Part shown: positions 122 to 19,395 of the stretch, in pieces | Numbering within the stretch: the stretch's first letter is position 1 | How the letters are laid out: every line of letters starts with the position of its first letter | NCBI GenBank assembly: GCA_046596255.1 | Contig: JBKJMZ010000013.1 | Location: 263 to 64,262, forward strand | Direction of reading: 5' to 3' | DNA from: Ferruginibacter sp. | GTDB taxonomy: Bacteria > Bacteroidota > Bacteroidia > Chitinophagales > Chitinophagaceae | DNA: 64,000 nt | Translations under genes and position numbers: made by a program | The notes under the pieces: model-generated | What the model saw: the letters and a program-made list of their open reading frames with translations, nothing else | Told to the model about the DNA's origin: nothing | The model's database searches: none

Positions 122-3100
122 ATGCTAATCCAACTGTGTAAGAAACCGATTTTCTTTATTACCCTGTTATTATGCGGCGTAGATGCCGAAGCCCAGGAGC
201 CAAAACTTATCCTGCCTTTTAGCCCGGGCATTGTTTCTAACATGAAATTTTCTCCTGACGGGAAAAGAATATTAACCCAGGCTGATAATAAAAAAGGCAC
301 ACTTACATCTCCTTTATTATGGAACACCCAAACTGGGAAGCTCTTAGCGGTTTTATCGGGTCATACAGGGGAAGTGCGGGAAGCAATATTTTCTCCCGAC
401 AGCAAAAAAATTATAAGCTATTCTTTTATTGATGACAATCGAGTTAGGTTATGGGATGCCATATCAGGCAGGGTTCTTTATATATTAGGTAAGCATGAAG
501 TTTCCATTGATGCCGCTGCTTTTTCACCCGATTCAAAGAAAGTGGCAATTATCATTTCTGATACCATCCAGGTATGGGATACAGAAACAGGCCAGTTGAT
601 AAATAGCATCGATGAATTCGGCGGACTTCTTTCTACATGCACGATAAGCTTTTCGCCCGATGGAAAAAAATTATTAACCACTACTAAAGACAGTATCGCA
701 CAGGTATGGGATGTAGAAACTGGAAAAGACATAGTTACATTGAGCGGGCAGGGACATGTAATTAGTTCCGCTTCATTTTCTCCTGATGGCCTGCAGGTTT
801 TAACCATATCTGAAGATACGGTAATAAGAGTATTGAATGCACAATCCGGGAAGGTTTTACACAGGCTTGGCGGATACAAGGGAGGCATAAAATTTGCCCG
901 GTTTTCGCCCGATGGAAAAAAAATATACTCGGCAACTATTGTTACACCTTTTATGCCTGTTAAACATATAAAAATTTGGTCCGCAGAAATGGGTATATTG
1001 CTGCTGAATAAAAAAATAGAAAGCTCCACTTCACCTGTATTTGCCATTTCAAACGATGGCACAAAAATCGTTACAGGGTTTACTGACCAGGAAAATAAAA
1101 TCATTTTACAGGATATTGAATCGGAAAAAGTAGTCGGGGAATTTAATAATTCTGCCGAGATATCTTCTGTAACCCTTTCGACAGATAATAAAAAGATAGC
1201 AACAGGATCATGGGATGAGAATGTACATATATGGAACCTTGAGACAGGGTCTCTTATAACAACCCTTAACGGTCATACATTGGAAGCTGGGAGCGCCCTT
1301 CAGTCGGCCGATGGCGAAAGGATCATAAGCCAGCGTGATTGGGAAGCTGTGCAGATATGGAACAGGCGAACAGGGGCTTTATTGAGTACTATTTATGATG
1401 CTAATTTCATTGAAGGTTCAGATGTTTTATCCCCTGATGGAAAAAGATTGATCTTAAAGATCATTGAGAACCCCTCTAAAAAACCCAAACCTTTTACACC
1501 CGGAACAACATCAATTGAAGTTCATTCTCTATTCACAAAATTAATGCGGGGCAACGCTGAACTTTGGGAACCGGATAGTGCAAAGTTCATAGGCTTTTTG
1601 GGCCAGGGTAAGGAAACAGTGAGGGCCCGTTTTTCGGCAGATAGTAAATTATTGTTTACTACAAATGAAGATGGAGTTACAACCATCAGGAATGGGCTAA
1701 CAGGCGATTCCCTTTTTTCAATTAAACAGGATAGAGAAAATGCAGCAGTAAATTTTTCTCCTGACAGCAAAAAGATCGCAGCATCGGTTGATAAGATCAT
1801 AAAGGTTTTTAATTGCACTTCGGGTGCCTTATTATTCACGTTTAAAGACCATAAGGAAGCGGTTCAACAGGTGGTATTTACTCCTGATGGGAAAAAACTG
1901 GTGACATCATCCCGGGATGCAATTAAAATATGGGATGCTGCTTCGGGACTTTTACAAAAATCGCTGATACATGGAGAAGAAGGGAATCCAAAAATTCAGA
2001 TTTCCCCTAACAGTAAACTGATGTCTGTACGAAGTGAGGACAAACTCGATATTTGGGATCTTGATGGAGGCGAACAGATTACCCATATGAAGGATGACTA
2101 TCCCTCCGTTTTGCATGAGGATAATAAAATGCTTGTGTTTAGTCCTGATGAGAAGCTATTCGCTTTTCTTGCTGAGGATAATTCAGTTTTAGTGTTTGAG
2201 ACACATTTCGGACTGGAGAAAGTCAGGCTCCCTGGTCACCCCGAACCTATATCTTCCATAATATTTTCTAAGGATTCCAAAAGCATAGCTGTCGTTTTTC
2301 CGAATTTTATTGAGGTTTGGAATGCTGAAACAGGGGAGCGAATTGATCCGGTGTCACAGCCCGAACCCATTCAATTCTTTGATAATAATTTCTATAACAG
2401 TAAAAGGGTGAGTTTGAATAACGGGCTTGTAGTTGTGTCTGACTTGGAGACCGGGAAACAGATCTATTCTTTTGTGGGAGTTGATAGTACAGAATTTTTT
2501 TACCAACTCCCTTCGGGTTATTATTATATTTCTTCGCCACAGGTTGCAAAGATGTTGCATTATGTTACACCCGACCAGCGCGTGATAGGTTTTGAGCAAT
2601 TGGATGTAAAGTTCAACCGCCCCGACCTTATTCTGCCGGTAATTGGTTCAACTGACACGGCCCTGATCGACTCTTACAGAAAAGCCTATGAAAAAAGGAT
2701 AAAAAAACTCCGTATTGATACAGCTTCATTTAGTGTCGGCTTTGGATTGCCCGAAGCCGATTTTTCGGATAGGGCAAAAATCGTGTTTGAACAAAGGGAA
2801 AATAAATTATCGCTGAATATAAAGGGGAAAGACGCTGTGTATGAACTTGACCGTTTTAACCTTTGGATAAATGAAGTGCCTTTATTTGGCCAGCGGGGCA
2901 TAAGCTTAAAAAATAAAATGAAGAAAGTTTTTGATACGACAATTACAGTGATCTTATCGGGTGGAAATAATCAACTGGAGACCTCCATATCCAATGTGAA
3001 CGGTACAGAAAGTTACCGGGTCCCACTGACTGTAAATTATATACCGGAGGTAAAACCAAAAGAGCAAATATATTTTATCGGAATCGGCATTGACCAGTTT

Positions 3101-3847
3101 GTTCAAAGCAAATACAACCTTAAGTACAGCACAAAGGATATCCGCGACCTTGCAAACAAATTAAAAGAAAAGTATACGGGCATCATCATTGATACTTTGT
3201 TCAATGAAAATGTAACTATTAGCAATGTAAAAGCCTTAAAACAAAAACTGCTACAAACCAATGTCAATGATAAAGTGATCATTTCTTATTCCGGCCATGG
3301 TATGCTGAGTAAGGATTTTGATTACTATCTTTCAACCTATGGGGTGAACTTTGATAAACCCGAAGAAAACGGCCTGCCTTACGATGAACTGGAAAGTTTA
3401 CTGGATAGTATCCCTGCCCGAAAAAAACTAATGCTTATTGATGCTTGTCATAGCGGTGAAGTGGATAAGGACGATTTAGTTGCCCTTAATGCAACAGATA
3501 CAAAATTGATCAAAGGACTTAAACCCGTTGCTTACAAAAAAGAAGGCCAGTTAGGGTTAAAGAACAGCTTTGAACTGATGCAAAGCCTTTTTGTGAATGT
3601 AGGCAAGAGCACCGGGGCAACTATCATCTCAGCAGCTGCAGGTACCCAGTTTGCACTGGAAGGAGTAGACAATCTTCCCAATGGGGTTTTTACCTACAGC
3701 ATTTTGGAAGCCATGAATAAATATCCAACAATGAAGATCAGTGAACTGAAAAAGATCGTGGGGGATCGGGTGGTAGAGATCACCAAGGGTTTACAAAAAC
3801 CTACCAGCAGGAATGAAACCATTGCGGTGGATTGGGAAATATGGTAA
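122..3847 (+). CDS. Exported WD40-repeat / caspase-like (peptidase C14) fusion protein, paralog 1
   Basis: 1241-aa ORF. N-terminal signal peptide (..LLLCGVDAEA|QEP). Repeated WD40-type blades (GH..V...FSPDGK....D.t...WD..tG). Linker shared by all four paralogs (YYY..., FEQLDVKFNRPD, SYRKAYEKRIKKL). The C-terminal caspase fold starts at YFIGIGIDQF (nt 3071), with His in ISYSGHGM (codon 3296-3298) and Cys in LIDACHSGE (codon 3446-3448). Confidence 0.85.
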   Translation: MLIQLCKKPIFFITLLLCGVDAEAQEPKLILPFSPGIVSNMKFSPDGKRILTQADNKKGTLTSPLLWNTQTGKLLAVLSGHTGEVREAIFSPDSKKIISYSFIDDNRVRLWDAISGRVLYILGKHEVSIDAAAFSPDSKKVAIIISDTIQVWDTETGQLINSIDEFGGLLSTCTISFSPDGKKLLTTTKDSIAQVWDVETGKDIVTLSGQGHVISSASFSPDGLQVLTISEDTVIRVLNAQSGKVLHRLGGYKGGIKFARFSPDGKKIYSATIVTPFMPVKHIKIWSAEMGILLLNKKIESSTSPVFAISNDGTKIVTGFTDQENKIILQDIESEKVVGEFNNSAEISSVTLSTDNKKIATGSWDENVHIWNLETGSLITTLNGHTLEAGSALQSADGERIISQRDWEAVQIWNRRTGALLSTIYDANFIEGSDVLSPDGKRLILKIIENPSKKPKPFTPGTTSIEVHSLFTKLMRGNAELWEPDSAKFIGFLGQGKETVRARFSADSKLLFTTNEDGVTTIRNGLTGDSLFSIKQDRENAAVNFSPDSKKIAASVDKIIKVFNCTSGALLFTFKDHKEAVQQVVFTPDGKKLVTSSRDAIKIWDAASGLLQKSLIHGEEGNPKIQISPNSKLMSVRSEDKLDIWDLDGGEQITHMKDDYPSVLHEDNKMLVFSPDEKLFAFLAEDNSVLVFETHFGLEKVRLPGHPEPISSIIFSKDSKSIAVVFPNFIEVWNAETGERIDPVSQPEPIQFFDNNFYNSKRVSLNNGLVVVSDLETGKQIYSFVGVDSTEFFYQLPSGYYYISSPQVAKMLHYVTPDQRVIGFEQLDVKFNRPDLILPVIGSTDTALIDSYRKAYEKRIKKLRIDTASFSVGFGLPEADFSDRAKIVFEQRENKLSLNIKGKDAVYELDRFNLWINEVPLFGQRGISLKNKMKKVFDTTITVILSGGNNQLETSISNVNGTESYRVPLTVNYIPEVKPKEQIYFIGIGIDQFVQSKYNLKYSTKDIRDLANKLKEKYTGIIIDTLFNENVTISNVKALKQKLLQTNVNDKVIISYSGHGMLSKDFDYYLSTYGVNFDKPEENGLPYDELESLLDSIPARKKLMLIDACHSGEVDKDDLVALNATDTKLIKGLKPVAYKKEGQLGLKNSFELMQSLFVNVGKSTGATIISAAAGTQFALEGVDNLPNGVFTYSILEAMNKYPTMKISELKKIVGDRVVEITKGLQKPTSRNETIAVDWEIW

Positions 3848-3962
3848 AGAAAGCAGAAAATCCAAATTCGAATTGAGCGGCACAAAAGATAAGTTGAATG
3901 AACTTGCTGCTGCGGTGGCGGAGAAGTCGGCGGTGATGGTAAAGTAAGTTTTAAAAAACGCT

Positions 3963-6900
3963 ATGAGCAAAATATTACTGGTTATCTTTTGTTTTGCTAC
4001 AACAATGGTTTGGGGGCAACAGGCCAAATTAATGTTGCCCGTTGGGCATACGAAAGCAGTGCTTGCGGTTGACTTCAGTATAGATAGTAAAATGTTGGTT
4101 TCAGGATCGGATGATAATACTGCAAAGCTATGGGATGTTGCCAGCGGTAAAGAATTATTATCTTTTGCAGGGCATACAGATCGGGTGGTCTCAGTAAAAT
4201 TCTTCAACAATGACCTGTATTTAATTTCCGGCTCGGAAGATAATACTGTTAAGATCTGGAATTGCAAAACAGGTAAATTAGTTTTTGATCTGAAAGGACA
4301 TACAGGTAGAATTAATGCAGTTAATTTAAGTCCTGATGAAAAGTTGGTAATAACTGCTTCAGACGACAGAACTGCAAAGATCTGGGACATTGAAACCGGC
4401 ATATTATTACATACTTTAACCAGTCATCAATGGGCTGTTAAGAAGGCAATTTTTGATCTAACTGCAACAAAAGCCATTACAGTTTCTGAAGATAACATGG
4501 CAGTAATTTGGGAAGTAGCTACCGGAAAAATTTTAAAACAACTTACACATCACCGGGGAGCCCTTAGTGATGTTTGCCAAATACCCGGTACTAACCTTAT
4601 CATAACAGCATCCATAGATCACTCGGCTGCTGTTGTGAATATTGAAAGCGGCAAAGTAATTCAAGAATTTACCGGGCATACAAATGATGTTACAAAAGTT
4701 ATTGCCGCCAATAGTGGAAAACTAGCATTCACAACATCAGTGGATAGTACAATAATATGTTGGGATATTAAAACTGGTAAATTAATGTATCGTAGCAGCC
4801 ATAATGCACAGATTTTAGATATAAGCATAAGCCCAGATGATAAATGGATTGCAACAGCTTCATCAGATAATTTAATAAGAATTTGGAATGCGGCATCAGG
4901 CAAAGAGCTTCATAAACTTATTGGCCATGAGGCTGGTGTAAGAGCCGTCTCATTCAATAAAAATTCGGCAATATTAGCTTCGGGCTCAAATGATAATCGC
5001 ATAAAATTATGGAATACAAAGGAGGCGGAACTAATTAGAACTATAAGTACTCATACCGAGACCGTTATATTTATGGCATATTCCGAAGACAGTGTATATT
5101 ATCTTACCACTGCCAATGATGATCAAAAAAATTCTATCTGGAATAAAGCTAAATCAATAATAATAGCTATTGTTGAAACTGCTACAGGTAAAGAAATATC
5201 AAGGAAGATTTTCAGCGTTGATAGTATTTCTAATGAATTTGATGCAATTGTGTATAGCATGGATGGTAAATTTTATATTACAAAGGATACCAAAGGTAAT
5301 TTGAGCATCCATGATGCGTTTTCAACCCAGCATGTTCGAACCATTAAAAATTCCGGTAATACAATTATAGATCCTGCGTTTTTCGAAAGTTCCGGAAAGG
5401 TTATATCGGTCTATGATAAGCATTATATTAAGGTTTGGGATATAAAGGATTCACTTAAAGATGAAGTCTTAATTAAGGAGAAGTTGCAGATTACGCGGTT
5501 CAAATATTTTCATAATGCTCGTGAGTTATACTACTTAACAAAGTTGAATGAGCTTGTAAATTTTAATTGCAGGATAAAAAAAATAAAATCAAGGATAAAG
5601 CTTTTCCCAGCTGGTAAAATTACTTTTTTTGCAAAAGAAGAACAGGTTGCTGTTTACATGGCAGATAAAAAAGCATTATTTATTGAAGGCAATTCGGGAA
5701 CACTACGAAAATATATTCTACAGATCAAGGGAGAGGCGGAAGAGCCAAAGATCGTTGAAAACAGGAAGGCAATAATGTTTTTTGAGAATAAGGAATATGC
5801 CAGGATTTATGATATTAAAACCGGCAGGTTAAAACTGCAGTTTAAAGTTTGGGATCAATTAGGATATATTGGATTTGTAAACAGCAGTGGTGATAAATTT
5901 TATCATTCACAGGAAGATAATTCAATAGCAGAGCGGAATTTAGTAAATGGAAAAGCAGAACGAAAATTTATAAAACATCAAAACTGGCTTACACACATCG
6001 CTCCATACCCGCTTAAAAACATGATGATTTCCTATGGCTGGGATAACCAGTCTGTTATATGGGATAAAGAAAAAGCTTTGCCGGTTTGCTACAGGTTACA
6101 ATTGAAAGATAATAACTGGATAAATTATCTACCAACAGGTTACTATTACGCCACGCCCGACGCATCAAAGCTTCTTTATTATGTAACCAGAGATTTAAAA
6201 ATAATAAGCTTTGATCAATTGGATGTAAAGTATAACCGTCCCGACAAAGTGCTGCAAGCACTTGGCAATACAGACACTTCATTAATAAATTCTTACCGTA
6301 GGGCTTATGAAAAAAGAATTAAGAAACTGGGGATTGATACTACTACATTTATGGATGGTTTCGGTGTTCCGGAAAGCAATCTTGCAAACCGGGAGCAGTT
6401 GGAATTTGAGCTGACAAATGAATTGCTGGATTTACAAATTAAACTTTTTGATAGTACCTACAAACTTGACCGGTTTAATGTTTGGTTAAATGAAGTGCCC
6501 GTTTTTGGACAGCGGGGAGTAAATATCAGAAAGAATAATACACGACAACTGGACACCGCAATCAGGGTACAACTATCGCAGGGATACAACCTTTTAGAAA
6601 CCACCGTATATAATGTGAACGGTACCGAAAGCTACCGCATGCCCTTGCAGGTAAATTATACGCCTGCCAATAAACAGTCAGAAAGAACATATTTCATAGG
6701 TATTGGCATTGATCAGTTCGTTGACAGTAAGTACAATTTAAAGTACAGCACAAAAGATATCCGTGATCTCATCAAAAAACTAAAAGAAAAATATAATGAC
6801 ATTATCATAGATACCTTATTCAATGAAGATGTAACCATCAATAAGGTAAAAGTATTAAAACAAAAACTGCTGCAAACTACAGTAAATGATAAAGTCATTA

Positions 6901-7466
6901 TTTCTTACTCCGGCCACGGCATGTTAAGCAAAGATTTTGATTATTTCCTTTCAACCTATGCAGTAAATTTTGATAAGCCTGAAGAGAATGGCCTGCCTTA
7001 CGATGAGCTGGAAAGTCTGTTAGACAGTATTCCTGCCCGTAAAAAATTAATGCTCATTGATGCCTGCCATAGCGGTGAAGTAGACAAGGATTACCTGGTT
7101 GCCCTAAATGCCACGGATAAAAAATTGATCAAAGGACTTAAACCCGTTGCTTACAAAAAAGAAGGCCAGCTGGGATTAAAAAATAGCTTTGAACTGATGC
7201 AAAGCCTTTTTGTGAATGTAGGCAAAAGCACCGGCGCCACCATCATCTCAGCCGCAGCGGGTACCCAGTTTGCGCTGGAAGGAGTGGATAATCTTCCCAA
7301 TGGTGTATTTACATACTGCATACTTGAGGCAATGAATAAATATCCAACAATGAAGATCAGTGAACTAAAGAAGATCGTTGGAGAGAGAGTGGTAGAGATC
7401 ACAAAAGGATTACAAAGGCCAACCAGCAGGAATGAAACGATAGCGGTGGATTGGGAAGTATGGTAA
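3963..7466 (+). CDS. Exported WD40-repeat / caspase-like (peptidase C14) fusion protein, paralog 2
   Basis: 1167-aa ORF. Signal peptide (..TTMVWG|QQA). Very canonical WD40 blades at the N-terminus (GHTKAVLAVDFS..SGSDDNTAKLWDVASG, GHTDRVVSVKF..SGSEDNTVKIWNCKTG, GHTGRINAVNLSPD..ASDDRTAKIWDIETG). Same linker (FDQLDVKYNRPD, SYRRAYEKRIKKL). Caspase module from nt 6690, with His codon 6915-6917 (SYSGHGM) and Cys codon 7065-7067 (DACHSGE). Confidence 0.9.
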   Translation: MSKILLVIFCFATTMVWGQQAKLMLPVGHTKAVLAVDFSIDSKMLVSGSDDNTAKLWDVASGKELLSFAGHTDRVVSVKFFNNDLYLISGSEDNTVKIWNCKTGKLVFDLKGHTGRINAVNLSPDEKLVITASDDRTAKIWDIETGILLHTLTSHQWAVKKAIFDLTATKAITVSEDNMAVIWEVATGKILKQLTHHRGALSDVCQIPGTNLIITASIDHSAAVVNIESGKVIQEFTGHTNDVTKVIAANSGKLAFTTSVDSTIICWDIKTGKLMYRSSHNAQILDISISPDDKWIATASSDNLIRIWNAASGKELHKLIGHEAGVRAVSFNKNSAILASGSNDNRIKLWNTKEAELIRTISTHTETVIFMAYSEDSVYYLTTANDDQKNSIWNKAKSIIIAIVETATGKEISRKIFSVDSISNEFDAIVYSMDGKFYITKDTKGNLSIHDAFSTQHVRTIKNSGNTIIDPAFFESSGKVISVYDKHYIKVWDIKDSLKDEVLIKEKLQITRFKYFHNARELYYLTKLNELVNFNCRIKKIKSRIKLFPAGKITFFAKEEQVAVYMADKKALFIEGNSGTLRKYILQIKGEAEEPKIVENRKAIMFFENKEYARIYDIKTGRLKLQFKVWDQLGYIGFVNSSGDKFYHSQEDNSIAERNLVNGKAERKFIKHQNWLTHIAPYPLKNMMISYGWDNQSVIWDKEKALPVCYRLQLKDNNWINYLPTGYYYATPDASKLLYYVTRDLKIISFDQLDVKYNRPDKVLQALGNTDTSLINSYRRAYEKRIKKLGIDTTTFMDGFGVPESNLANREQLEFELTNELLDLQIKLFDSTYKLDRFNVWLNEVPVFGQRGVNIRKNNTRQLDTAIRVQLSQGYNLLETTVYNVNGTESYRMPLQVNYTPANKQSERTYFIGIGIDQFVDSKYNLKYSTKDIRDLIKKLKEKYNDIIIDTLFNEDVTINKVKVLKQKLLQTTVNDKVIISYSGHGMLSKDFDYFLSTYAVNFDKPEENGLPYDELESLLDSIPARKKLMLIDACHSGEVDKDYLVALNATDKKLIKGLKPVAYKKEGQLGLKNSFELMQSLFVNVGKSTGATIISAAAGTQFALEGVDNLPNGVFTYCILEAMNKYPTMKISELKKIVGERVVEITKGLQRPTSRNETIAVDWEVW

Positions 7467-7585
7467 CACTAACAAAATTATTTATAGTAGTATTTAAATT
7501 ACAGTTCCCTGGCATCGTTGAAAAATACCATCTTTTGGTATTACAGATCATAACAAAACACAGTACCTTTTACAAAAATTAGGTT

Positions 7586-10500
7586 ATGCCAACAAAATTC
7601 TTACTCATTCTTATTATTTATACTTCATTCACCGGAACTTATAGTAAAGCACAACAACCCGAAATTATTTTGCCTATCGGCCATACTGAAGACATCTATT
7701 CAACATCCTATACAAAAGATGGCAGGTTTATAATTACTGCTGCATATGATAATACAGCAAAATTATGGGATGCTTATTCAGGAAACCTGCTTCATACATT
7801 TTCGGGTTTATTTCATACCCCCGGGCATATCGTCAATATAGGTAATACAACATTTTTAAGTACCGATGGTAAATACCTGCTTACACTTACGATCGATGGT
7901 TTTCTTCAAAAGTGGGAACTTCAAACAATCAAACTAATGTATTCAATTGCGGTTGAGAACGCTGTTGCAACAAGAATAGCATATAGCGCCAATGGGGCTT
8001 ACCTGCTTTTAAAGAGAGAAACGTACGATGGTTCACATACAGAAATTATTGATGCCCTTTCAGGAAAACGGTTATACAATTTGAGTGGAGGCGGCAACAA
8101 GAATAATTTGATCGAATGTAGCCCGGATGGCAGGTTTATTCTTTTGCAGAAAAACAGTTTATTGTTTTTATATAATGCAGCTAATGGTAAAGTTTTGAAG
8201 AAGCTCGATCCTCCCCGAAACTTTAATGATGCTTTTTTTAGCCCGGGCGGAAAATATATTGTAATTCTTCAACCCAATTCCAGTTTGTTAAACCTATGGA
8301 GGGTAAGCGACGGTTCACTTCACAAGGTTTCGGTTTCCGGCACATTTGAATTTAGCCCGGATAGCAAATACATACTTTCAACAAACAACAAGCGGCTGCA
8401 TTTAATAAACACAGAAAGCGGCGATGTTGTTCACCAATTTGAAGAAATGATCAGTAACAAAATGCTTGGGCATTTTAGTGAAGATGGGAACCATATTTAT
8501 TTAACACGCAACCGACAGCTTATAAGAGGCGATGAACCCTATGACTCTGTAACTCTCATTTGGGAAACGGCAACCAAACGGCTGGTTCATACTTTACGGG
8601 GAAATGGCTATGATATGCATACGGTTGTTTTTAGTGCCGATAACAGGTATATAGCAACAGTTGCGGGTAATGCAGTTGTTTGGGATGCCGAAACAGGCAA
8701 ATTGATAAATTCATTTGAAGGGCAGCAGGTAGACTTTAGTCCGGATGGTAAAACCCTAACGGTTACAGGAAAAAGAGAAGCATTAGTATTCAGCCTGGGG
8801 TTGAAAGAAAAACTGGCTGAGTTAAAAGGGTATAGCAATAACATCTCCAGTGCCATTTTTAGCCCCAACGGTAAACTACTGCTTACACTTTCAAACGAAT
8901 TAAATGCAAAACTATGGGATGTTGGTACCGGGAAGATCATAAACACATTTAAAGATGCATCCGAAATTAATAATGCCGCCCTTTCAAATGACGGCCGGTT
9001 TATGTTGATCACCACTGCAAAAAAATTAACTAAATTAATAAACCTGGCTACCAGCAAAGCCGAATATGTGTTAGACCAGACCGGCATCAACAGCGCATCC
9101 TTTAGCCCAAATGGGCAACAGGTGATAACTACTTCAGAAGATCAATTGATAACTAGCTGGGAAGCTGCTACCGGTAAGCTCTTAAAAAAAATAAAAGAAG
9201 AATATGCCGTAAGCGATGCAGCAATAAGTGCTGATGGAAATTTTGCTTACTATGTTTTTGGACAAAGCGCAGCGGCAGTTTTGGAATTTACAACCGGCAG
9301 GATATTTAAAATTTATCTTGGGGATGAAAATATTGTAAGATGCCGGTTTAGCGCCGATGGAAAAAGGATTTTAGTTTTAGGCGAAAAGGGAACTGCCCGG
9401 CTCTACGAAACATCAACCGAAAAAATGATAGCCCAATTTAGTGAGGGATCTAAAACAGAATATGGCGTTTCGTATTTGGGTGGCTATAATTATAGGAATT
9501 TATGGCAAAGCCGTTACCGCCATTTTAGTGCTGATGGAAAATACCTGGTCTTCCGTACTTATTTTGACAAATACCTGGTAGTAAGAAATATGGATGACCT
9601 GGGAGTGATTGACACGATACACCTAAATAGTGGGTTGATCAATGATATAGGGTTTATCCCGGGCTCATCATTGCTGGTTACCGGGTCGCTGGATGATACG
9701 ATCAGGATATGGCAGAAAAAGAAAAGCAGGTTTGAAGTAGTTAAAAAATTTGTAGGAAATGGATTTGAATATTCCGCTGATGGCAAAAAATTATTGATCA
9801 TTAATAAGGTGCAGTTGATTTTTTATGATATCCCGGAAGATCGCATCTTGTACAAAGCATTGGCAATAAATGAAAGTGATTTTTTTACCCAGCTACCAGG
9901 TAAACCTTTTTACGCAGCAACAAAGGAAGCGGTAAAAAACCTGGGTTTCCGGGTGGGTAAGGAATATTTTTCTTTTGACCAGTTTGATCTGCAGTTAAAC
10001 CGCCCCGATATAGTGCTGACAGGGATTGGGTTTGCTGATACTTCGTTAATAACCGCATATAAAAAAGCGTACTCTAAAAGAGTTAAACGATCCGGATTAA
10101 AAACCAGGGAATTTTCGGAACGCATCAACCTTCCCGTGGTACAGGTAAACGGGCGGGAACCTTATGGCGAAATAAAGCATTCGGTGTTAACATTTCAATT
10201 TACTGCCTACGATCAACAGCAGCTTTTAGATCGTTATGATATCGCTGTTAATGATGTGCCGCTTTATGGCATCAACGGGTATAGCCTGAGATCATTGCAT
10301 ACAAAGCGAATAACAAAAAAGGTCAGTATTCCCCTCTCGGAAGGAATTAATATCATTAAAATAACTGCTGTAAACGGGAATGCTGATGAAAGTTTTAAGA
10401 AAACGCTTTTAGTTACTCACCCAGGGGACAAAAAATTACAGGCACCTAAGCTGTATTTTATTGGAATTGGTATAGACCAGTTTGCAAACAGCAATTACAA

Positions 10501-11230
10501 TCTGCGGTACAGTGCAAAGGATATCCGGGATCTCAGCAACAAATTAAAAGAAAAATTTCACGATATTATTATAGATACTCTGTTCAATGAAAATGTTACG
10601 ATCAGCAATGTAAAAGCACTAAAACAAAAACTACTCCGAACAACTGTTAATGATAAAGTGATCATTTCTTACAGCGGACATGGAATGTTGAGCAAGGATT
10701 TTGATTATTTTCTTTCTACCTATGGGGTGAACTTTGATAAGCCTGAAGAGAATGGTTTGGCTTATGATGAACTGGAAAGCTTACTGGACAGTATTCCGGC
10801 CCGTAAAAAATTAATGTTGATCGATGCCTGTCACAGTGGTGAGGTAGATAAGGATGACCTGGTTGCCATGCATGCAACTGATCAAAAATTGATCAAAGGA
10901 CTTAAGCCCGTGGCTTACAAAAAGGAGGGCCAGTTAGGATTGAAGAACAGTTTTGAACTGATGCAAAGCCTTTTCGTGAATGTGGGCAAGAGCACAGGTG
11001 CTACGATCATCTCTGCAGCCGCAGGTACCCAGTTTGCGCTGGAAGGGGTGGATAACCTTCCAAATGGTGTTTTCACCTACTGCATTTTGGAAGCCATGAA
11101 TAAATATCCTAAAATGAAGATCAGTGAACTGAAAAAGATTGTGGGTGATAGAGTTGTAGAAATCACCAAAGGCTTACAAAAGCCAACGAGCAGGAATGAA
11201 ACTGTCGCGGTGGATTGGGAAATATGGTAA
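7586..11230 (+). CDS. Exported beta-propeller (WD40-like) / caspase-like (peptidase C14) fusion protein, paralog 3
   Basis: 1214-aa ORF. Signal peptide (..GTYSKA|QQP). The first blade resembles paralog 2 (ILPIGHTEDIYS...AAYDNTAKLWDAYSG). Many FSPDG/SADGK-type repeats follow. Linker FDQFDLQLNRPD / AYKKAYSKRVKR. Caspase module from nt 10454 (YFIGIGIDQF ... SYSGHGM ... DACHSGE ... VDWEIW). Confidence 0.85.
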   Translation: MPTKFLLILIIYTSFTGTYSKAQQPEIILPIGHTEDIYSTSYTKDGRFIITAAYDNTAKLWDAYSGNLLHTFSGLFHTPGHIVNIGNTTFLSTDGKYLLTLTIDGFLQKWELQTIKLMYSIAVENAVATRIAYSANGAYLLLKRETYDGSHTEIIDALSGKRLYNLSGGGNKNNLIECSPDGRFILLQKNSLLFLYNAANGKVLKKLDPPRNFNDAFFSPGGKYIVILQPNSSLLNLWRVSDGSLHKVSVSGTFEFSPDSKYILSTNNKRLHLINTESGDVVHQFEEMISNKMLGHFSEDGNHIYLTRNRQLIRGDEPYDSVTLIWETATKRLVHTLRGNGYDMHTVVFSADNRYIATVAGNAVVWDAETGKLINSFEGQQVDFSPDGKTLTVTGKREALVFSLGLKEKLAELKGYSNNISSAIFSPNGKLLLTLSNELNAKLWDVGTGKIINTFKDASEINNAALSNDGRFMLITTAKKLTKLINLATSKAEYVLDQTGINSASFSPNGQQVITTSEDQLITSWEAATGKLLKKIKEEYAVSDAAISADGNFAYYVFGQSAAAVLEFTTGRIFKIYLGDENIVRCRFSADGKRILVLGEKGTARLYETSTEKMIAQFSEGSKTEYGVSYLGGYNYRNLWQSRYRHFSADGKYLVFRTYFDKYLVVRNMDDLGVIDTIHLNSGLINDIGFIPGSSLLVTGSLDDTIRIWQKKKSRFEVVKKFVGNGFEYSADGKKLLIINKVQLIFYDIPEDRILYKALAINESDFFTQLPGKPFYAATKEAVKNLGFRVGKEYFSFDQFDLQLNRPDIVLTGIGFADTSLITAYKKAYSKRVKRSGLKTREFSERINLPVVQVNGREPYGEIKHSVLTFQFTAYDQQQLLDRYDIAVNDVPLYGINGYSLRSLHTKRITKKVSIPLSEGINIIKITAVNGNADESFKKTLLVTHPGDKKLQAPKLYFIGIGIDQFANSNYNLRYSAKDIRDLSNKLKEKFHDIIIDTLFNENVTISNVKALKQKLLRTTVNDKVIISYSGHGMLSKDFDYFLSTYGVNFDKPEENGLAYDELESLLDSIPARKKLMLIDACHSGEVDKDDLVAMHATDQKLIKGLKPVAYKKEGQLGLKNSFELMQSLFVNVGKSTGATIISAAAGTQFALEGVDNLPNGVFTYCILEAMNKYPKMKISELKKIVGDRVVEITKGLQKPTSRNETVAVDWEIW

Positions 11231-11332
11231 TAGCTTTTCATATAAGCATTCTATACATTGTTTTTTGCGGATAAGAATGAAGGAACTATTTTTAGATACT
11301 AAAATCATTGTTTACCAAAACTTCATCATACT

Positions 11333-12850
11333 ATGCTAAAGTTGATCTCTGCGTTTCTACTTGCAGTTAGTTTTATGTTTACTGCTGCTGCACAAAATTC
11401 TCCTGCTGTTAAAATGGTTGACTATGCACTTAGTGCTGTAGTAACTGTTGCTATTTACGAAACCGATGTGGCCATGAAACCCATGGGCTTTCGTGGCAAC
11501 TCAAATGAACTGGCTTACAGTAAAGCCCTGGACCTTACCGGAGCCAAAAGCAGCGGGTCGGGGTTTGTAATTAAAAAGAACAACAAATTATACGTGGTCA
11601 CCAATGCGCATGTAATACAGGATGCGGCAGAAACGGATGGCAGTATATATATCTACAGCATTGGGTATAAAAAATACAATATGAACCTGGTGGGTGGTGA
11701 TTCATTTTATGATATTGCCGTGTTGGAATTTACTAATGAACCCGGTTCAGAAATAACCAGCATTAAATTCAGGACTGCAGATGTGAGTGTTGGTGAACAG
11801 GTTTTTGCCATTGGCAATCCGCTGGGTGATTATCCCTATTCCGTTACTGATGGCATTATTAGCGCAAAGAACCGGGTAAGAGGCGGGCTCACCGGAAAAT
11901 TTGGTTTCCTGCAGTCAACGGCAACAGTTATCTGGGGTAACAGTGGTGGCCCCCTGGTTGATATTGCAGGAGATGTGGTTGGCATCAATTCGCAGATCGC
12001 ATTTGCAGAAAGAGGGAATGATCAAATTTGGCAGCCGCAAATAAATTTCGCATTGGAAGCGGGGCTTTCGGAAAGACTGGTAAATGACATCATCAGCAAT
12101 AAGGGGCTTATTAAAAGAGCGTACCTGGGTGTTGAGATATCGCAACTTAAAGTAGATTCTTATTACGAAAAAAAATATGGTACCAGTGAAAAGGAAGAGA
12201 TCAGTCCGCTGCCTTTCGTAAGTGCTGTGTTGCCCGGGAGTCCTGCTGCTTCAGCATTATCAGCATATGTTGGTTACACAATTACCTCAATAAATAATGA
12301 GTCTGTGCGAAACGTTGAAGAAGCGCTTGGTGCACTTGAAATAGTAAAGCCTGGTGAGGAGATCAATTTTAATTTAATAAAGAATGGGAGAACTGCTGTT
12401 GTAAAATTAAGATCGGTAACTTCTAATGTATCAACCAGCAGCGCAATTGGGAAATATGCTGTAACCCAATGGGGAGGCAGATCGTCCGGCATCAACAATA
12501 TGCTCTCGTTAAATTTCACCGATAAAGATGCGTATGTAAGTTTCCGCAACAGGTCAACCGAAAGTATTACTTTACTGGGTAATAAAAATGCACTTCAACA
12601 GGATTTTTTATTCAATAATGACTGGATGGTTGTGGCTGCAGGCATTGTTTCTGCCAATGGCAATTCGCTCTGGAAAGTAACTGATGATGCAGATCTTGGT
12701 GCCGCTTTGCGCCTTACGGGATTAAGCGGCGTGATTGACCTGGTGCTATTTGCAAAAGGAACAGATGTAAACAATCAAAATAATTACATTGTAAAACGAT
12801 TTAAACTTTCAGGCAGGGATAATACATTTAAGCAAACGCTTTGGTATTGA
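11333..12850 (+). CDS. Exported trypsin-like serine protease with PDZ domain (HtrA/DegP-like, S1C-type)
   Basis: 505-aa ORF. Signal peptide (..MFTAAA|QNS). Catalytic-triad contexts VVTNAHVI (His), YDIAVLEF (Asp) and GNSGGPLVD (Ser). PDZ-like segment (AYLGVEISQ...LPGSPAA...ITSINNESV...EINFNLIKNGR). About 150 aa of unassigned C-terminal sequence. Confidence 0.85.
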   Translation: MLKLISAFLLAVSFMFTAAAQNSPAVKMVDYALSAVVTVAIYETDVAMKPMGFRGNSNELAYSKALDLTGAKSSGSGFVIKKNNKLYVVTNAHVIQDAAETDGSIYIYSIGYKKYNMNLVGGDSFYDIAVLEFTNEPGSEITSIKFRTADVSVGEQVFAIGNPLGDYPYSVTDGIISAKNRVRGGLTGKFGFLQSTATVIWGNSGGPLVDIAGDVVGINSQIAFAERGNDQIWQPQINFALEAGLSERLVNDIISNKGLIKRAYLGVEISQLKVDSYYEKKYGTSEKEEISPLPFVSAVLPGSPAASALSAYVGYTITSINNESVRNVEEALGALEIVKPGEEINFNLIKNGRTAVVKLRSVTSNVSTSSAIGKYAVTQWGGRSSGINNMLSLNFTDKDAYVSFRNRSTESITLLGNKNALQQDFLFNNDWMVVAAGIVSANGNSLWKVTDDADLGAALRLTGLSGVIDLVLFAKGTDVNNQNNYIVKRFKLSGRDNTFKQTLWY

Positions 12851-12921
12851 TCACTATTTATCGTTTAGAACCTAATTTCTCCAAGGGTAAAAACCGGTAA
12901 TGATTAAAAAAATCCCTGGCT

Positions 12922-15900: not shown

Positions 15901-18012
15901 AAAGAAAAAAATATCCAGTATATGGATATTTCTGCGGACGGAAAGATACTCTGGTTCGGCACTGCCAATGATGATATTATTTTTATTGATATTGAAACCC
16001 GCAGACAATTCTGGAGTATGAATAAATTCCGGGTGAAAGATTGGGACGGCTTTGTATTAAGAGATATGGTTTACAGGGATGGCAAATACCAATTACTGGG
16101 TGTGGGCATTAAAACCTATGGTAAAGAAAGTGGTTTCACATACATAACAGTCGAAGCAAATGATAATATGATCTCTATAAAAAGATCACCCGAGAAAAAA
16201 TTATTAAGAGAGGGAAAAGGCTTTGAACGTAAAGTGTTTGAAAGGGATGGGAAAATATTTGATATATCGCCCGATGGAAAATATTTCTGTTTTATGAAAG
16301 AACTGGAGCTGTATATCGTTGATCTCAAGTCAGGCGATACTGTTTTTAATCGTGATAACCCGATATCAGGAAGTATACAATCAGGTTTTTTTACAGCAGA
16401 TCAAAAGTTTTTCATAGTAGGGCTGGATGATGGCTATACGGAGATCTATGACTTGGGCAGGAAGGGTAAAAGTTACAAATATGGTAACGAGGCCAAAGGC
16501 TTATTGAGGCTGAAACGCTTCAGGGCCAATGAAAGTGGAGTTTCATATATGCAGGTAGCAGGCAACAGGTTACTGGTTAAAGGCAATAACGCTTTTATTT
16601 CATTGTTTGATATGAATAGTGAATTCAATAAGGAGCTGGATATGGATTTTATTAAAGATGCCGACCAGGTATTCATCAATCCGGAGGGATATTATTATTC
16701 AACCAAGAACGCACTTAATTATATAGCTTTTAAAAGAGACGTTTCCATTTATCCATTTGAGCAGCTGGATATAAAATATAATCGCCCGGATAAAGTGCTT
16801 GAATCTGTTCACAGTAAAGATGCCTCCCTGATCGGCTCTTACAAAATGGCTTATTTAAAAAGGATCAAAAGAATGAATATTCACGAAGCCAGTAACCTTG
16901 ATGTAAGCAATATTCCCCAGGCTGATTTTGCAAACAGGCTCAGCATCCCTTTTGACCAGACTACAGGACAGTTAAAGCTGAACGTAAAGGGAGGAGATAA
17001 TAAGTATGCTTTGGACCGGGTGAATATCTGGATTAATGATGTTCCCTTATGGGGAATGAAAGGGCTAAGCCTTCAAAACCGCAAGAGGAGCTTATATGAT
17101 ACAACCATCATGATTAATTTAACAAAAGGAAGGAACAAGATCGAGGTAGCGCTGACCAACAGCAACGGTGCAGAAAGTTTCAAAACACCATTAATGGTAA
17201 ATTATTCGCCGGTCAATACTATAAATGAAAAGGTCTATTTCATTGGTATAGGTATTGATGAGTTCGCAGACAATAAATACAATCTTAAATACAGCGCCAA
17301 GGATATCAGGGACCTTGCTGAAAAGTTCAGTGAGCAATATGGCAATTTAGTGATCATCGATACGCTTATAAATGAAAATGTAACTGTCAGCAATATAAAA
17401 GCATTAAAGAAAAAGCTGCTGCAAACAACAGTAAATGATAAGGTAATAATTTCATACTCGGGTCATGGCATGCTGAGCACCGACTTTGATTATTATCTTT
17501 CTACCTATGCTGTAAATTTTGACAAACCCGAAGAGAATGGCTTGTCGTATGATGCACTGGAAGACCTTGTTGATAATATTCCAGCCCGTAAGAAACTCCT
17601 GTTGATAGATGCCTGTCACAGTGGTGAGGTAGATAAGGATGACCTGGAGAGGCTTAATGCTACCCCCGACAGTTTAATAAAAGGGCTTAAGCCCGTGGGT
17701 TTTAAAAAGAACGGGCAGTTGGGTTTGAAGAACAGTTTTGAATTGATGCAGACCCTGTTTGTAAATGTGGGCAAGAGTACTGGTGCTACGATCATTTCAG
17801 CAGCAGCGGGTACCCAGTTTGCGCTGGAGAGTAATAATTTAAAAAACGGCATTTTTACTTACAGCATACTGGAAGCGATGAATGCCAATAGCTCGATGAA
17901 AATCAGCGAACTTAAAAAAATTGTAGGTGAGCGGGTGGAACAATTGACGAAAGGATTACAGAAACCTACCTCAAGAAGCGAATCGATTGTTGTGGATTGG
18001 GAAGTTTGGTGA
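12922..18012 (+). CDS. Exported giant beta-propeller-repeat / caspase-like (peptidase C14) fusion protein, paralog 4
   Basis: 1696-aa ORF. Signal peptide (..LAEISPA|QDI). About 1250 aa of degenerate propeller-type repeats with a few recognisable WD40 blades (GHNGLIKDIVISADKRFFISSAQDKTIKLWDLEKN). Shared linker (FEQLDIKYNRPD, SYKMAYLKRIKRM). Caspase module from nt 17236 (YFIGIGIDEF ... SYSGHGM ... DACHSGE ... VDWEVW). Confidence 0.85.
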   Translation: MHKNTFRIGILLFCIFLAEISPAQDIRIVPKERSFLYLLGMSVSPSGSYIASRLLESKQVSIFESFSGKEIKRIDLGTRPEKFYFLNDEYLLVIFNFNIVIIDTRDKTTVAEWKSDDRIFNVDFNLKNKVLAISTLYNTATISCTGSRFNILASIPSKKSDILSISENGLVLAGLQENKIVCWNVNDLQVKGSIDTAGIHSFEAVSSGIIAIKKDPFSYAYYNFDGTLRSGSGYKEIRNVSPAYFTHLHSTEGGFFVEAYKKIVFIDNEGYQTILKTADQYKEMQYNEATGKFITLGFDNITVMDIEGAVYAKTALDDVLPVDMYYDTTLEKNMIALDSQVVFAESGKEVRKFMLKGNYVTKAIEKDNWLIVPLADGRISIWDIKKEKLLYDIKHGQIPYLVVPDHKNNCLYTSVFQDSAVYRVDLAKDTKQLIYKDNAPITALAIKNDQVFIGNTRGEVKATLLQGNSLLVKHRASLFGNGISKITIAGDKLMIGSYGRMGYIKTDLSDSVNTPLFVGHNGLIKDIVISADKRFFISSAQDKTIKLWDLEKNRLVQSYDLDSVDADRLQLVGNTEFLFYGAGFLMGAVTDSVSVNAFMNPGNEIVVQSPNNNSPLKMAINKEGTLLAAVDNNTVKVRDLKSGFLISEFSTQNKTVNGITFTTDGKMIAVAAGDAVECFDPLTGKLIRQIVLDKRGRSVHDVEAYNNAIVAINSHGWHNPLIFHKNSGLKLGEIWYNAGEQMDKRIMDFKCTSNGSLLITYGTDFIKVFENPQKPKLILTIPLAAQGKTNENYIDFMNISPDEKYLLYDDFTDVSTLKIVEIAGGKLLKQHNGGIGAFGKDGRYIYVAGRNRVGFRNILTDSVRILDFTCDGDINNIVYNDKADIFAVSDTWGNIKILEGRSGSIISENSRWDQYTYNSILSPDGWYMVFNNRSGLYTIDLNTLKREKIPAENFPLSGVFSPASDKLYFRNKNTFYAKELATGNIDTIFTTSVKEKNIQYMDISADGKILWFGTANDDIIFIDIETRRQFWSMNKFRVKDWDGFVLRDMVYRDGKYQLLGVGIKTYGKESGFTYITVEANDNMISIKRSPEKKLLREGKGFERKVFERDGKIFDISPDGKYFCFMKELELYIVDLKSGDTVFNRDNPISGSIQSGFFTADQKFFIVGLDDGYTEIYDLGRKGKSYKYGNEAKGLLRLKRFRANESGVSYMQVAGNRLLVKGNNAFISLFDMNSEFNKELDMDFIKDADQVFINPEGYYYSTKNALNYIAFKRDVSIYPFEQLDIKYNRPDKVLESVHSKDASLIGSYKMAYLKRIKRMNIHEASNLDVSNIPQADFANRLSIPFDQTTGQLKLNVKGGDNKYALDRVNIWINDVPLWGMKGLSLQNRKRSLYDTTIMINLTKGRNKIEVALTNSNGAESFKTPLMVNYSPVNTINEKVYFIGIGIDEFADNKYNLKYSAKDIRDLAEKFSEQYGNLVIIDTLINENVTVSNIKALKKKLLQTTVNDKVIISYSGHGMLSTDFDYYLSTYAVNFDKPEENGLSYDALEDLVDNIPARKKLLLIDACHSGEVDKDDLERLNATPDSLIKGLKPVGFKKNGQLGLKNSFELMQTLFVNVGKSTGATIISAAAGTQFALESNNLKNGIFTYSILEAMNANSSMKISELKKIVGERVEQLTKGLQKPTSRSESIVVDWEVW

Positions 18013-19395
18013 TCAGTAATCAATTCCGAATAAAGAAAAACTTGCCCATTGTGAAGGCTTGGAAAATTTTTCCCTGGTGTCAAGCATGGCTAATCTTAAT
18101 GGTTCTGAAGGCATGAAGTAATGAGGGTCCTTAAGATGATGTACAAAACGGTTCATTAAATAAGCCGTGGCATTATCGTCAACGTTCCAAAGACTCATGA
18201 TCACATGGTCACTACCGCCCAACAGGAAACTACGTGCAAGGCCTGCTACACCAGCTTCCATTGATTTTCCCAGCCCGGTCTGACAGGCAGACAGGATCAC
18301 CATGGCCGGGAAATTATTTTTCAGGTAATTGCTGTCAGTTCGCAAAGCCATGATATTTTGGGCAGTTAAAAATGGATCTTTACCGCTCAATACCAGGAAA
18401 CTTTTTTCCATCGGCTTATCCTCATCCGCTATACCATGGGTTGCAAAATAAACTACATCTGCAGTTTTCATATACCTGATCACGCTGTCTTTAACAGCTT
18501 TGTTGCCTTCAAGTAATTTATAGGTTCCCGCGTATTTTATTGCAGTGTCAATTTCTTTTTTTGCCCCGGGCAGATCTGGGTAAACGAATTCCGTGCCTAC
18601 AGGATAAACCGGGTTGCTTATAAAAAGCGGGTTATTGAAAATAAAAGGACGTTTCACCAGTTCCCTGCCATCAAAGCCATATTCCGTAGCAGCTGTTTTC
18701 CTGATCACTTTTACTCTTAAACCAAGCAGGTCAAAAATACCGGGTACAACAGTTACACTGCAAAGATCAAGGAGCTGCAGTTCTTTTTGCCCAGGTTTGA
18801 GCAGGTAAAATGGAAAAGTGCCAATGTTCAGTGCAGGTATTATAAGTAGGTGCCTGTATTTTGCATTAAAGTTATCGGGTAATAATAATGAGGTGGCTCT
18901 TTTTATTACGTCATTATAAGTTATTCCTTTTGTTGCAGCCGCCCGGTTGATTTTAACTCCTCTTTTTACCGGCATCCTGTCTACTGATCCTGCATAGAGT
19001 TCCAGTACATGATTCATATCAATACTTAGCTGCAATAGTTCAGCCTTGCTGATCGTAAAAATTTTCTTCTCTATTACTTTACCCGGTTCAAAGAATACCC
19101 GCTGGAGGCGGCCCTGGTCAAAGAAGTAAAATAGAATACCAATGCCTTTATTTCTTGGGTAGATATTTCCCAGCATTTCAGCAAAACTTTCATCCGATGC
19201 AATATTCTGCGTATTGAATATTCTTGTCATTTCCTTTATCTCATCAGCAGGCATACCCCTTGTTGCCAGCAGGGATTCAACCTGTTTGCTATATATCCTG
19301 TATACATTTCCGGTATCACTCTTATTCAGTGTTACCTGAGCGAAACATAAAGACGGCAGTAAAAGAATAAGCAGGAATATTTTTTTATAAAACAT
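18013..19395 (-). CDS. Exported CHAT-domain (caspase-fold) protein
   Basis: The ORF runs to 19482, but the likely start is the ATG at 19395, which gives MFYKKIFLLILLLPSLCFA|QVT as a signal peptide. The C-terminal half has a CHAT-type His/Cys dyad context (VVYFATHGIAD ... MVILSACQTGLGK). It lies 91 bp downstream of the caspase gene on the same strand. Confidence 0.78.
   Translation of the reverse strand: MFYKKIFLLILLLPSLCFAQVTLNKSDTGNVYRIYSKQVESLLATRGMPADEIKEMTRIFNTQNIASDESFAEMLGNIYPRNKGIGILFYFFDQGRLQRVFFEPGKVIEKKIFTISKAELLQLSIDMNHVLELYAGSVDRMPVKRGVKINRAAATKGITYNDVIKRATSLLLPDNFNAKYRHLLIIPALNIGTFPFYLLKPGQKELQLLDLCSVTVVPGIFDLLGLRVKVIRKTAATEYGFDGRELVKRPFIFNNPLFISNPVYPVGTEFVYPDLPGAKKEIDTAIKYAGTYKLLEGNKAVKDSVIRYMKTADVVYFATHGIADEDKPMEKSFLVLSGKDPFLTAQNIMALRTDSNYLKNNFPAMVILSACQTGLGKSMEAGVAGLARSFLLGGSDHVIMSLWNVDDNATAYLMNRFVHHLKDPHYFMPSEPLRLAMLDTREKFSKPSQWASFSLFGIDY

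Follow-up and report, generated by a model that had tools for sequence, protein, structure and literature searches.

What keeps one end of four tandem proteins nearly constant when their other ends share little, and what might such proteins do? The question is raised by a 64,000-nt stretch of a Ferruginibacter sp. genome (contig JBKJMZ010000013.1, positions 263 to 64,262 of the forward strand; here called the window), which begins with an array holding four WD40-caspase paralogs that we designate P1–P4. We consider it probable that P1–P4 are Sec-exported multidomain cysteine endopeptidases, made of propellers and a metacaspase-like module and belonging to a large Bacteroidota family found mainly in Chitinophagaceae, in which the module would be an Arg/Lys-cleaving engine and the propellers would choose its substrates.

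Four Paralogs with a Constant C-Terminal Cassette

The first 18 kb of the window consist of five plus-strand genes separated by gaps of 71–119 nt: P1 (122..3847, 1241 aa), P2 (3963..7466, 1167 aa), P3 (7586..11230, 1214 aa), an HtrA-like gene, and P4 (12922..18012, 1696 aa). The paralogs lie where an earlier reading of the DNA (the original prediction) had placed them, and they share the co-linear C-terminal module that it described. This cassette is ~450 aa long and comprises a helical linker, a β-sandwich of ~100 aa and a Peptidase_C14 domain; it opens with the motif P-x-G-Y-Y-Y at nt 2510, 6132, 9896 and 16681 in P1–P4, respectively (predicted starts: 2500, 6128, 9890 and 16681). In P1 it occupies 2510..3844 on the plus strand, with the linker (QLD.K.NRPD ... 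AY.KRIK) followed by the β-sandwich at ~2753–3040 and Peptidase_C14 at ~3068–3844. The caspase domains of P2, P3 and P4 lie at ~6690–7463, ~10454–11227 and ~17236–18009.

Sliding identity along the protein alignment was ~10–35% over the N-terminal parts, which indeed share little, 30–70% over the linker and sandwich, and 90–98% over the caspase domain among P1–P3 (72–88% against P4). Taken as a whole, the caspase domains are 90–93% identical within P1–P3 and ~80% identical to that of P4, and the most divergent linker/sandwich is that of P3. In the last 258 residues, P1 and P2 differ at 18 positions, exactly the number counted by hand in the original prediction; P1 and P3 differ at 19, and P2 and P3 at 25.

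The Cassette Resembles a Metacaspase

Peptidase_C14 (PF00656) was significant in all four cassettes, with E-values from 1e-14 to 4e-18 (6.8e-16 for P1) and scores of 55–66 bits against a cut-off of 21.4. The ~195 aa that precede the caspase domain, linker and β-sandwich together, had no Pfam match at E ≤ 1 and only chance-level sequence matches in the PDB; they constitute an unannotated domain that could enter the domain databases. In an AlphaFold model of the P1 cassette (pLDDT 79.5; m786afcfa3824), numbered from the start of the cassette, short strands that close the last blade come first, followed by helices at 45–73 corresponding to the NRPD ... AY.KRIK linker, an eight-strand β-sandwich at 89–184, and a caspase-type α/β domain at 194–452 whose two halves are separated by a disordered Lys-rich loop (323–357). 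Foldseek matched this model to GSU0716, the MALT1 paracaspase, TbMCA2 and animal caspases, with E-values from 7e-9 to 1e-5 and a probability of 1.0.

By sequence, the closest solved structure was Arabidopsis metacaspase-4, with its catalytic His and Cys in register. H270, C320, D217 and D318 were invariant in an alignment of 37 cassettes, as were the SGHG and DACHSG motifs. In P1 the codon of the catalytic His (SYSGHG), which aligns to the His of metacaspase-4, lies at 3296..3298 (+), and the codon of the catalytic Cys (IDACHSG), which aligns to the DSCHSG of metacaspase-4 and has the invariant D318 two residues upstream, at 3446..3448 (+). Profile, dyad motifs and modelled fold agree in placing P1–P4 in peptidase family C14. 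The S1 pocket of TbMCA2 includes Asp95 and Asp211 (PMC4357240), and D217 and D318, judged by alignment, stand at the positions of these residues. Because the two invariant Asp residues match the S1 residues of TbMCA2, the cassette caspase is likely to be specific for Arg/Lys.

Purifying Selection Keeps the Caspase Domains Alike

One account of near-identical 3' ends is that the cassette is young, recent tandem duplication or conversion having copied it so that selection is not needed. The nucleotide sequences of P1–P3 speak against it. Their caspase domains are only 82–84% identical at the DNA level, and by the NG86 method the proportion of synonymous differences (pS) was 0.60–0.66, the synonymous divergence (dS) 1.2–1.6 and the nonsynonymous divergence (dN) 0.04–0.05, giving a dN/dS ratio (ω) of ~0.03–0.04. 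The fraction of 4-fold sites that differ (p4, counted in identical codon families) was 0.45–0.55, where saturation in theory is 0.75. Between 3271–3330 and 10654–10713, 9 of 60 nt differ, five of them at third positions and two more through a synonymous Ser TCC/AGC switch, in keeping with the third-position bias noted originally. This Ser belongs to the catalytic SYSGHG motif and is encoded by TCC in P1 (3290–3292) and by AGC in P3 (10673–10675). A switch between these two Ser codon families needs two substitutions, passing through non-Ser intermediates.

As a baseline we used 113 caspase domains from 69 loci in 54 genomes (loci of the family in other genomes are labelled L0xx). NG86 pS, which behaves differently where amino acids are conserved, was dropped as a measure of saturation and replaced by p4 together with this between-genome baseline. 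Between genomes, p4 reached a plateau of ~0.63–0.65 while the proteins were 69–88% identical; identity at synonymous saturation averaged 77% and rose as high as 94%. Caspase pairs that were 90–95% identical had a mean p4 of 0.57. The P1–P3 caspases are as close to those of L001, L002, L003 and L005 (~92% identity, p4 0.51–0.60) as they are to one another, so that caspases of unrelated genomes equal their resemblance at similar or greater synonymous distance.

Because synonymous sites are deeply diverged while dN is only 0.04–0.05, and because caspases of other genomes are equally similar, we conclude that the identity of the caspase domains in the window is kept by strong purifying selection and not by recent copying. 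This bears out what had been proposed, that very recent duplication is not the only cause of the constancy. The predicted heterogeneity of dN/dS along paralog pairs was likewise found, and it was strong.

The Cassette Has a History of Its Own

Elsewhere in the family the copying account fares better. We compared 51 tandem pairs of other genomes, and in many of them p4 was much lower in the caspase than in the N-terminus, the linker/sandwich falling between the two: for caspase, linker/sandwich and N-terminus the values were 0.08, 0.32 and 0.61 in L044, 0.22, 0.47 and 0.84 in L041, and 0.26, 0.62 and 0.80 in L003, so that in some of these pairs the caspase DNA is nearly identical. Judged by 4-fold sites, 45 of 87 genes had their nearest caspase within their own genome, where chance would give 2.4%, a 20-fold excess. 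The window contributes two long identical runs: P1 and P2 share one of 49 nt (P = 0.011), P3 and P4 one of 40 nt (P = 0.001, codon-column permutation); the latter lies at ~10823–10862 and ~17605–17644, in caspase DNA that is otherwise only 74% identical. These runs may be short conversion tracts. Nevertheless, conversion cannot account for conservation between genomes, and copying that makes selection superfluous, refuted for the window although it contributes elsewhere in the family, is scarcely credible as the general explanation.

Comparison of orthologs points to exchange confined to the cassette. In the N-terminus, P1 and L011_7582 are each other's best match (57%), but identity between their caspases is only 82%, and either caspase shares ~93% identity with genes of its own genome lineage that are not orthologs. 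In L070 the linker/sandwich is closest to that of a paralog in the same genome (81%), not to that of P2 (70%), its N-terminal ortholog. Synonymous divergence jumps at the propeller/cassette junction, from a p4 of 0.47 to 0.76 between P2 and L070 and from 0.56 to 0.31 between P4 and L002, each a change of ~4 standard errors.

Across the family, the cassette (NEVERTHELESS) has its own history, with caspases grouping by genome lineage and N-termini by orthology. Because these groupings differ and dS is discordant across the junction, we conclude that, family-wide, recombination or gene conversion restricted to the 3' cassette also homogenizes it at times, stopping near the junction. The simplest cause would be that only the constrained part retains enough DNA identity to recombine. 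The original prediction was right about selection within the window and missed this second, family-wide process. We also observed that the linker/β-sandwich of P4 (16660–17235) is unusually close to that of L002, with a dS of 0.41 and a p4 of 0.31 against a dS of 0.9–1.24 in the rest of the gene, which suggests a more recent exchange or constraint at the nucleotide level.

The Propellers Are Old and Conserved Lineages

The N-terminal propellers of P1–P4 are only ~25% identical to one another. Pfam searches matched WD40 propellers in P1, for example. A custom repeat hidden Markov model recognized 17, 14, 17 and 13 repeat units in P1–P4, and the units are divergent (~17 WD40-type blades in P1 and ~17 WD40-type units in P3). 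Propeller-type matches extend throughout the degenerate multi-propeller region of P4, which at 1246 aa agrees with the ~1250 aa of repeats first reported. Weak matches to the DPPIV_N, TolB and Dpp5 propellers were also present. In a full-length model of P2 (pLDDT 79.1, pTM 0.69; m273d51a70ce2), nine four-stranded blades (residues 33–405) are followed by a disordered hinge (405–428), seven further blades (437–722) and the cassette. The blade count that structure models were expected to supply could thus be read for P2 as 9 + 7; closure of the blades into propellers could not be read from this model.

P4 has a full-length ortholog in L002, 80% identical in the N-terminus, 91% in the middle and 86% in the caspase; the relationship is congruent in all regions, and the HtrA and CHAT genes next to it are syntenic. 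For this pair ω was 0.096 in the N-terminus, roughly uniform along P4, and 0.093 in the caspase. The N-terminal orthologs of P2, the database proteins P0122 and P0123 (= L070), are about 73–75% identical to it (72.5%, with ω 0.19, in the selection analysis of L070), and that of P1, in L011, is about 57–58% identical (ω 0.18); all these ω values are whole-region values from two sequences per lineage. No ortholog of the P3 N-terminus above 30% identity was present among the 69 loci, and beyond the orthologs named, N-terminal similarity falls to the generic WD40 level of ~30%. The ortholog comparisons of the P1, P2 and P4 N-termini revealed no diversifying selection. The paralog N-termini are mutually saturated, so between them positive selection after duplication is neither shown nor excluded. 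Where relatives were found, the propellers (DIVERSIFYING) are old, conserved, vertically inherited paralog lineages under ordinary purifying selection, with an ω of 0.1–0.2.

One comparison is out of line with this. Between the N-termini of P1 and P2 (122–2509 and 3963–6131), p4 was only 0.49 ± 0.07 (n = 55 sites), equal to that of their caspases and below both the value for P1 and its L011 ortholog (0.66) and that of most other pairs of paralogs (at least 0.6 in 45 of 51). Small sample size, codon bias of WD40 motifs or a partially shared history could produce such a value. Read literally, it would imply duplication of whole genes followed by explosive N-terminal evolution, with an ω of ~1. 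We rejected this as a general model because it depends on 55 sites only, because 45 of the 51 within-locus pairs are at 0.6 or above, and because P1 and L011 differ at a p4 of 0.66 though their separation should postdate that of P1 and P2.

A Large Family with Gene Turnover

With the cassette as query, several hundred proteins were retrieved, none with a name more specific than "caspase family protein"; they come from Chitinophagaceae, Ferruginibacter, Panacibacter, Segetibacter, Pedobacter, Solitalea and Flavobacteriaceae. When the linker/sandwich was used as query, an exhaustive search yielded 2,789 clusters at 50% identity, 1,985 of them at E ≤ 1e-10, and this module nearly always lies at residues 600–900 of a protein of 1,000–1,300 aa. 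WD40-type propellers were present in 37 of 37 sampled members and Peptidase_C14 in 35 of the 37. Entries of 450–580 aa were rejected as stand-alone cassettes, as their first residues fall within a WD40 blade and a signal peptide is missing; such entries (e.g., P0007, P0008, P0017, P0026, P0031 and P0039) are probably truncated or split gene calls in metagenome-assembled genomes (MAGs) that mask the true architecture.

Tandem arrays of 2–4 genes occurred in 34 of 70 sources (the 69 loci and the window). When 102 complete genes from 54 genomes were clustered, the N-termini fell into 74 clusters at 50% identity and the caspases into one cluster at 70%. The pattern of a constant cassette with variable propellers far exceeds what chance would give and is repeated across the family. 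Among GTDB representatives, the best match to the cassette was 80% identical, and the closest synteny was that of L002, in a Chitinophagales MAG. At the place where the window has P1–P3, the region upstream of HtrA in L002 contains another, different member of 945 aa and a distant relative of 971 aa. Distant WD40 proteins, with caspases 26–42% identical to the cassette, adjoin the arrays in L002 (1–2913), L001 (9083–12712, minus strand), L066 (11334–16158) and L067 (11331–16161); several subfamilies therefore co-locate. We regard the family as a birth-and-death repertoire in which stable propeller types sit on a frozen, occasionally homogenized protease module.

Predicted Export

P1–P4 each start with a basic n-region; a hydrophobic core comes next, and then a putative signal peptidase site with Gln at +1: AEA↓Q in P1 (signal peptide aa 1–24), VWG↓Q in P2 (1–18), SKA↓Q in P3 (1–22) and SPA↓Q in P4 (1–23). 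Gln at +1 of signal peptidase I substrates, the Q-rule, is a hallmark of Bacteroidetes (PMC5837995, PMC10653852). A hydrophobic N-terminal segment was found in 96 of the 102 complete relatives and a small-x-small↓Q site in 64, and the mature N-terminus of the relatives is usually conserved as Q-Q-P-[KR]-L-V-L-P-I-G-H-T. P1–P4 have no lipoprotein Cys. NCBIfam matches at E ≤ 0.001 for P1 and P4 included no sorting domain of the type IX secretion system (T9SS), and the caspase domain (...DWE[IV]W) forms the C-terminal end of the proteins. Because signal peptides are present, P1–P4 are predicted to function outside the cytoplasm, with the periplasm as the simplest location.

Export bears directly on the function first proposed for the array, pattern recognition in the manner of NLR/STAND or fungal NWD/HET-E proteins. 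On such a reading, diversifying WD40 sensors would each recognize a different ligand and trigger a constant caspase effector, as in immunity or programmed cell death. The layout invites this comparison: a repeat array suited to a sensor is joined to a caspase suited to an effector, arrays turn over between close genomes (P1–P3 in the window against the different member and distant relative of L002), and 74 N-terminal types accompany a single caspase type. WD40 is, moreover, the commonest partner of prokaryotic metacaspases, at 10.9%, and metacaspase-NACHT-WD40 proteins are among them (PMC3501461); operons with several metacaspases also occur in Bacteroidetes (PMC3501461, Asplund-Samuelsson et al. 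2012).

The molecular features of the family do not fit, and the analogy drawn in the original prediction finds little support. No NTPase domain occurred in any member examined: the Pfam matches of the P1–P4 segments included no NACHT, NB-ARC or other P-loop NTPase, and no P-loop NTPase was among the 25 most widely matched of the 66 families found in 37 relatives. The signal peptides of P1–P4 and of most relatives imply a site outside the cytoplasm, and the domain order is opposite to that of the known bacterial caspase-NACHT-WD40 proteins. The "sensor" shows no diversifying selection between orthologs; their N-termini are conserved, with an ω of 0.10–0.19 that is roughly uniform along P4, and this comes close to what was itself named as grounds for refuting the proposal. 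We rejected membership in a PADLOC defence system, as matches were limited to a weak generic "caspase" model (26–33 bits) and WD40-like models with no conserved partners or accessory genes, and membership in the EACC1-associated caspases (NCBIfam NF047832), whose model gives 56–58 bits here against a cut-off of 140. NLR-like signalling by P1–P4 is, in our view, unlikely.

Neighbouring Genes

Between P3 and P4 lies an HtrA/DegP-like serine protease (11333..12850, +), which is not a member of the family. It has a signal peptide, Pfam matches to Trypsin_2 and one PDZ domain, and a C-terminal extension of ~140 aa without a Pfam match; it scores below the cut-off of NCBIfam degP_htrA_DO. The gene is kept at this position of an array only in L002 (89% identical). 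Convergent with P4 is the gene for an exported CHAT-domain (clan CD) protein (18013..19482, −; Pfam CHAT, E 7e-42), which is syntenic with arrays only in L002 (83%), L001 (77%) and L047 (52%) and whose true start is likely an internal Met before ...LLLPSLCFA↓QVT. It is followed by the gene for an exported caspase of another lineage (19487..21724, −), which has an N-terminal PF00656 domain (E 3.6e-29), a signal peptide (...SISA↓QEK), a long unannotated middle region and a DUF4384 domain; its homologs occur near WD40-caspase arrays in L007, L010 and L044. The signal-peptide feature of P1–P4 is shared by the HtrA-like, CHAT and caspase-DUF4384 proteins. DPP-IV is encoded further downstream (22697–24892, −). 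We rejected all four as conserved operon partners, since HtrA, CHAT, caspase-DUF4384 and DPP-IV genes adjoin arrays at only 0–3 of 69 loci.

The intergenic regions of the array are mutually unrelated, with no Bacteroidetes −7 motif and no small open reading frames in the gaps. Outside this region, the window carries housekeeping genes of an ordinary chromosome and several further peptidase genes. G+C content is ~40% across the window, in which no tRNA or Rfam RNA genes were found. A Fic/DOC protein with DUF4172 (49047–50162, −) and a NYN-domain protein (24966–25580, −) have no visible tie to the array. DPP-IV, an S9/S33-like hydrolase and two M28 aminopeptidases (22697–24892, 40282–41754, 41776–43218 and 51478–53061) make the neighbourhood rich in peptidases.

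Such surroundings, which also include the HtrA-like and CHAT proteins and the second caspase, could mean that the propellers are gating or size-exclusion devices in the style of prolyl oligopeptidase, DPP-IV or tricorn, and that the paralogs are largely redundant nutritional oligopeptidases of a protein-degrading bacterium. A β-propeller joined to a peptidase is a known gating design, and the weak DPPIV_N, TolB and Dpp5 matches are in keeping with it. But gating propellers are single, conserved and packed on the catalytic domain, and here at least 16 blades are present, with a linker and a β-sandwich between them and the caspase. The persistence of the propellers as distinct, individually conserved lineages also favours distinct over redundant roles. 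We therefore hold the gating explanation to be doubtful.

A Model for P1–P4

In the explanation we prefer, exported endopeptidases whose propellers select substrates, the protease module would be a common catalytic engine in the cell envelope, probably specific for Arg/Lys. Activation might involve a cut within the disordered Lys-rich loop that separates the caspase halves, or a rearrangement of this loop, which could be an autoprocessing or regulatory element. The propellers would act as interchangeable protein-binding platforms that set which envelope or extracellular protein each paralog captures. The original suggestion that each paralog may recognize its own ligand or substrate is plausible. 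The pattern as a whole arose from very strong purifying selection on the caspase (ω ~0.03–0.05), occasional homogenization of the cassette, old propeller lineages, and gain and loss of genes between genomes.

Several points weigh against this explanation or parts of it. Our literature searches found no biochemical or localization data for any family member, and nothing specific on exported WD40-caspases in Bacteroidota or Chitinophagaceae. A role of the propellers in substrate selection is pure inference, because no conserved neighbour or substrate gene accompanies the arrays across the 69 loci. The AlphaFold models do not fix the position of the propellers with respect to the catalytic site. 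Arg/Lys specificity comes from two aligned Asp residues and analogy. The signal peptides were recognized by visual inspection and a hydropathy heuristic rather than by dedicated prediction software, and the predicted export would leave the periplasm, the outer membrane or the medium as the final compartment. As for the history of the cassette, the evidence for conversion is weak within the window, where the P1–P3 p4 of 0.45–0.55 is barely below the between-genome 0.51–0.60 and only two long runs occur, and extreme constraint could mimic part of the incongruence between protein trees.

A more speculative possibility, which we think improbable, is that the arrays form an extracytoplasmic surveillance repertoire, each propeller set recognizing a foreign protein (an effector of the type VI secretion system, a bacteriocin or a phage protein) at the periplasm or surface, whereupon the metacaspase destroys it or triggers self-destruction of the envelope. 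If true, it would amount to NLR logic in an exported form that dispenses with the NTPase, and one would then expect genes to turn over between close genomes and the proteases of one genome to evolve together.

Caspase homologs abound in bacteria and have drawn much discussion as ancestors of the cell-death machinery, yet almost none has a known substrate or role. A frozen catalytic module combined with dozens of propeller sets lends itself to the practical study of two questions, namely which substrates a bacterial metacaspase cuts and by what means WD40 propellers guide a protease. The family also calls for caution on two counts. The combination of WD40 and caspase in bacteria need not mean NLR-like cytoplasmic signalling, and a pattern of "constant effector, variable sensor" is not necessarily an arms race; here it goes with purifying selection, occasional concerted evolution and old, stable propeller lineages.

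Comparison with Known Systems

TbMCA2 (4afr) and Arabidopsis metacaspase-4 (6w8s) resemble the cassette in fold or sequence, in the Asp two residues before the Cys, in the Asp on helix α1 and in a disordered loop between p20-like and p10-like halves. Identity to them is only ~14–16%, however; the cassette has no metacaspase-type N-terminal prodomain, and these enzymes are cytosolic, whereas P1–P4 are predicted to be exported. The Arg-specific MALT1, among the top structural matches, likewise has a caspase-like domain directly adjoining a β-sandwich, but its Ig3 domain follows the caspase and the β-sandwich of the cassette precedes it. A eukaryotic signalling scaffold that carries death and Ig domains, MALT1 has no homology to the cassette beyond the caspase fold.

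Like the gingipains (C25), P1–P4 appear to be exported Bacteroidota clan CD cysteine endopeptidases with an adjacent Ig-like or β-sandwich domain, a Gln+1 site and, in the case of P1–P4 by prediction, Arg/Lys specificity. The gingipains differ in having a T9SS C-terminal domain and adhesin domains, where P1–P4 have a C14 peptidase and WD40 propellers. With NLR/STAND and fungal NWD/HET-E proteins, P1–P4 share variable repeats joined to a constant effector and the expansion of paralogs. Unlike NLR/STAND proteins, they lack a central NTPase and are predicted to be extracytoplasmic, and unlike NWD/HET-E proteins, their repeats are not highly conserved internal units that shuffle, and their N-termini are under purifying selection between orthologs. 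Polymorphic toxins were rejected as a class for P1–P4: the gaps contain no small open reading frames, the neighbours are not conserved, and, as the original prediction had recognized, the polarity is reversed, with a constant C-terminal and a variable N-terminal part.

The nearest relatives are the bacterial WD40-metacaspases or orthocaspases, which, like P1–P4, combine a C14 domain bearing an HG...DxCHSG dyad with WD40 and of which no member has been functionally characterized. The common architectures described among them are metacaspase-NACHT-WD40 or the caspase first and then the repeats, and these proteins are presumed to be cytoplasmic. P1–P4, in contrast, run from a predicted signal peptide through propellers, linker and β-sandwich to the caspase, with no NTPase. 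We therefore see in them not a new type of system but a variant of the bacterial WD40-metacaspases, set apart by predicted export, a reversed domain order, the absence of an NTPase and a private linker/β-sandwich.

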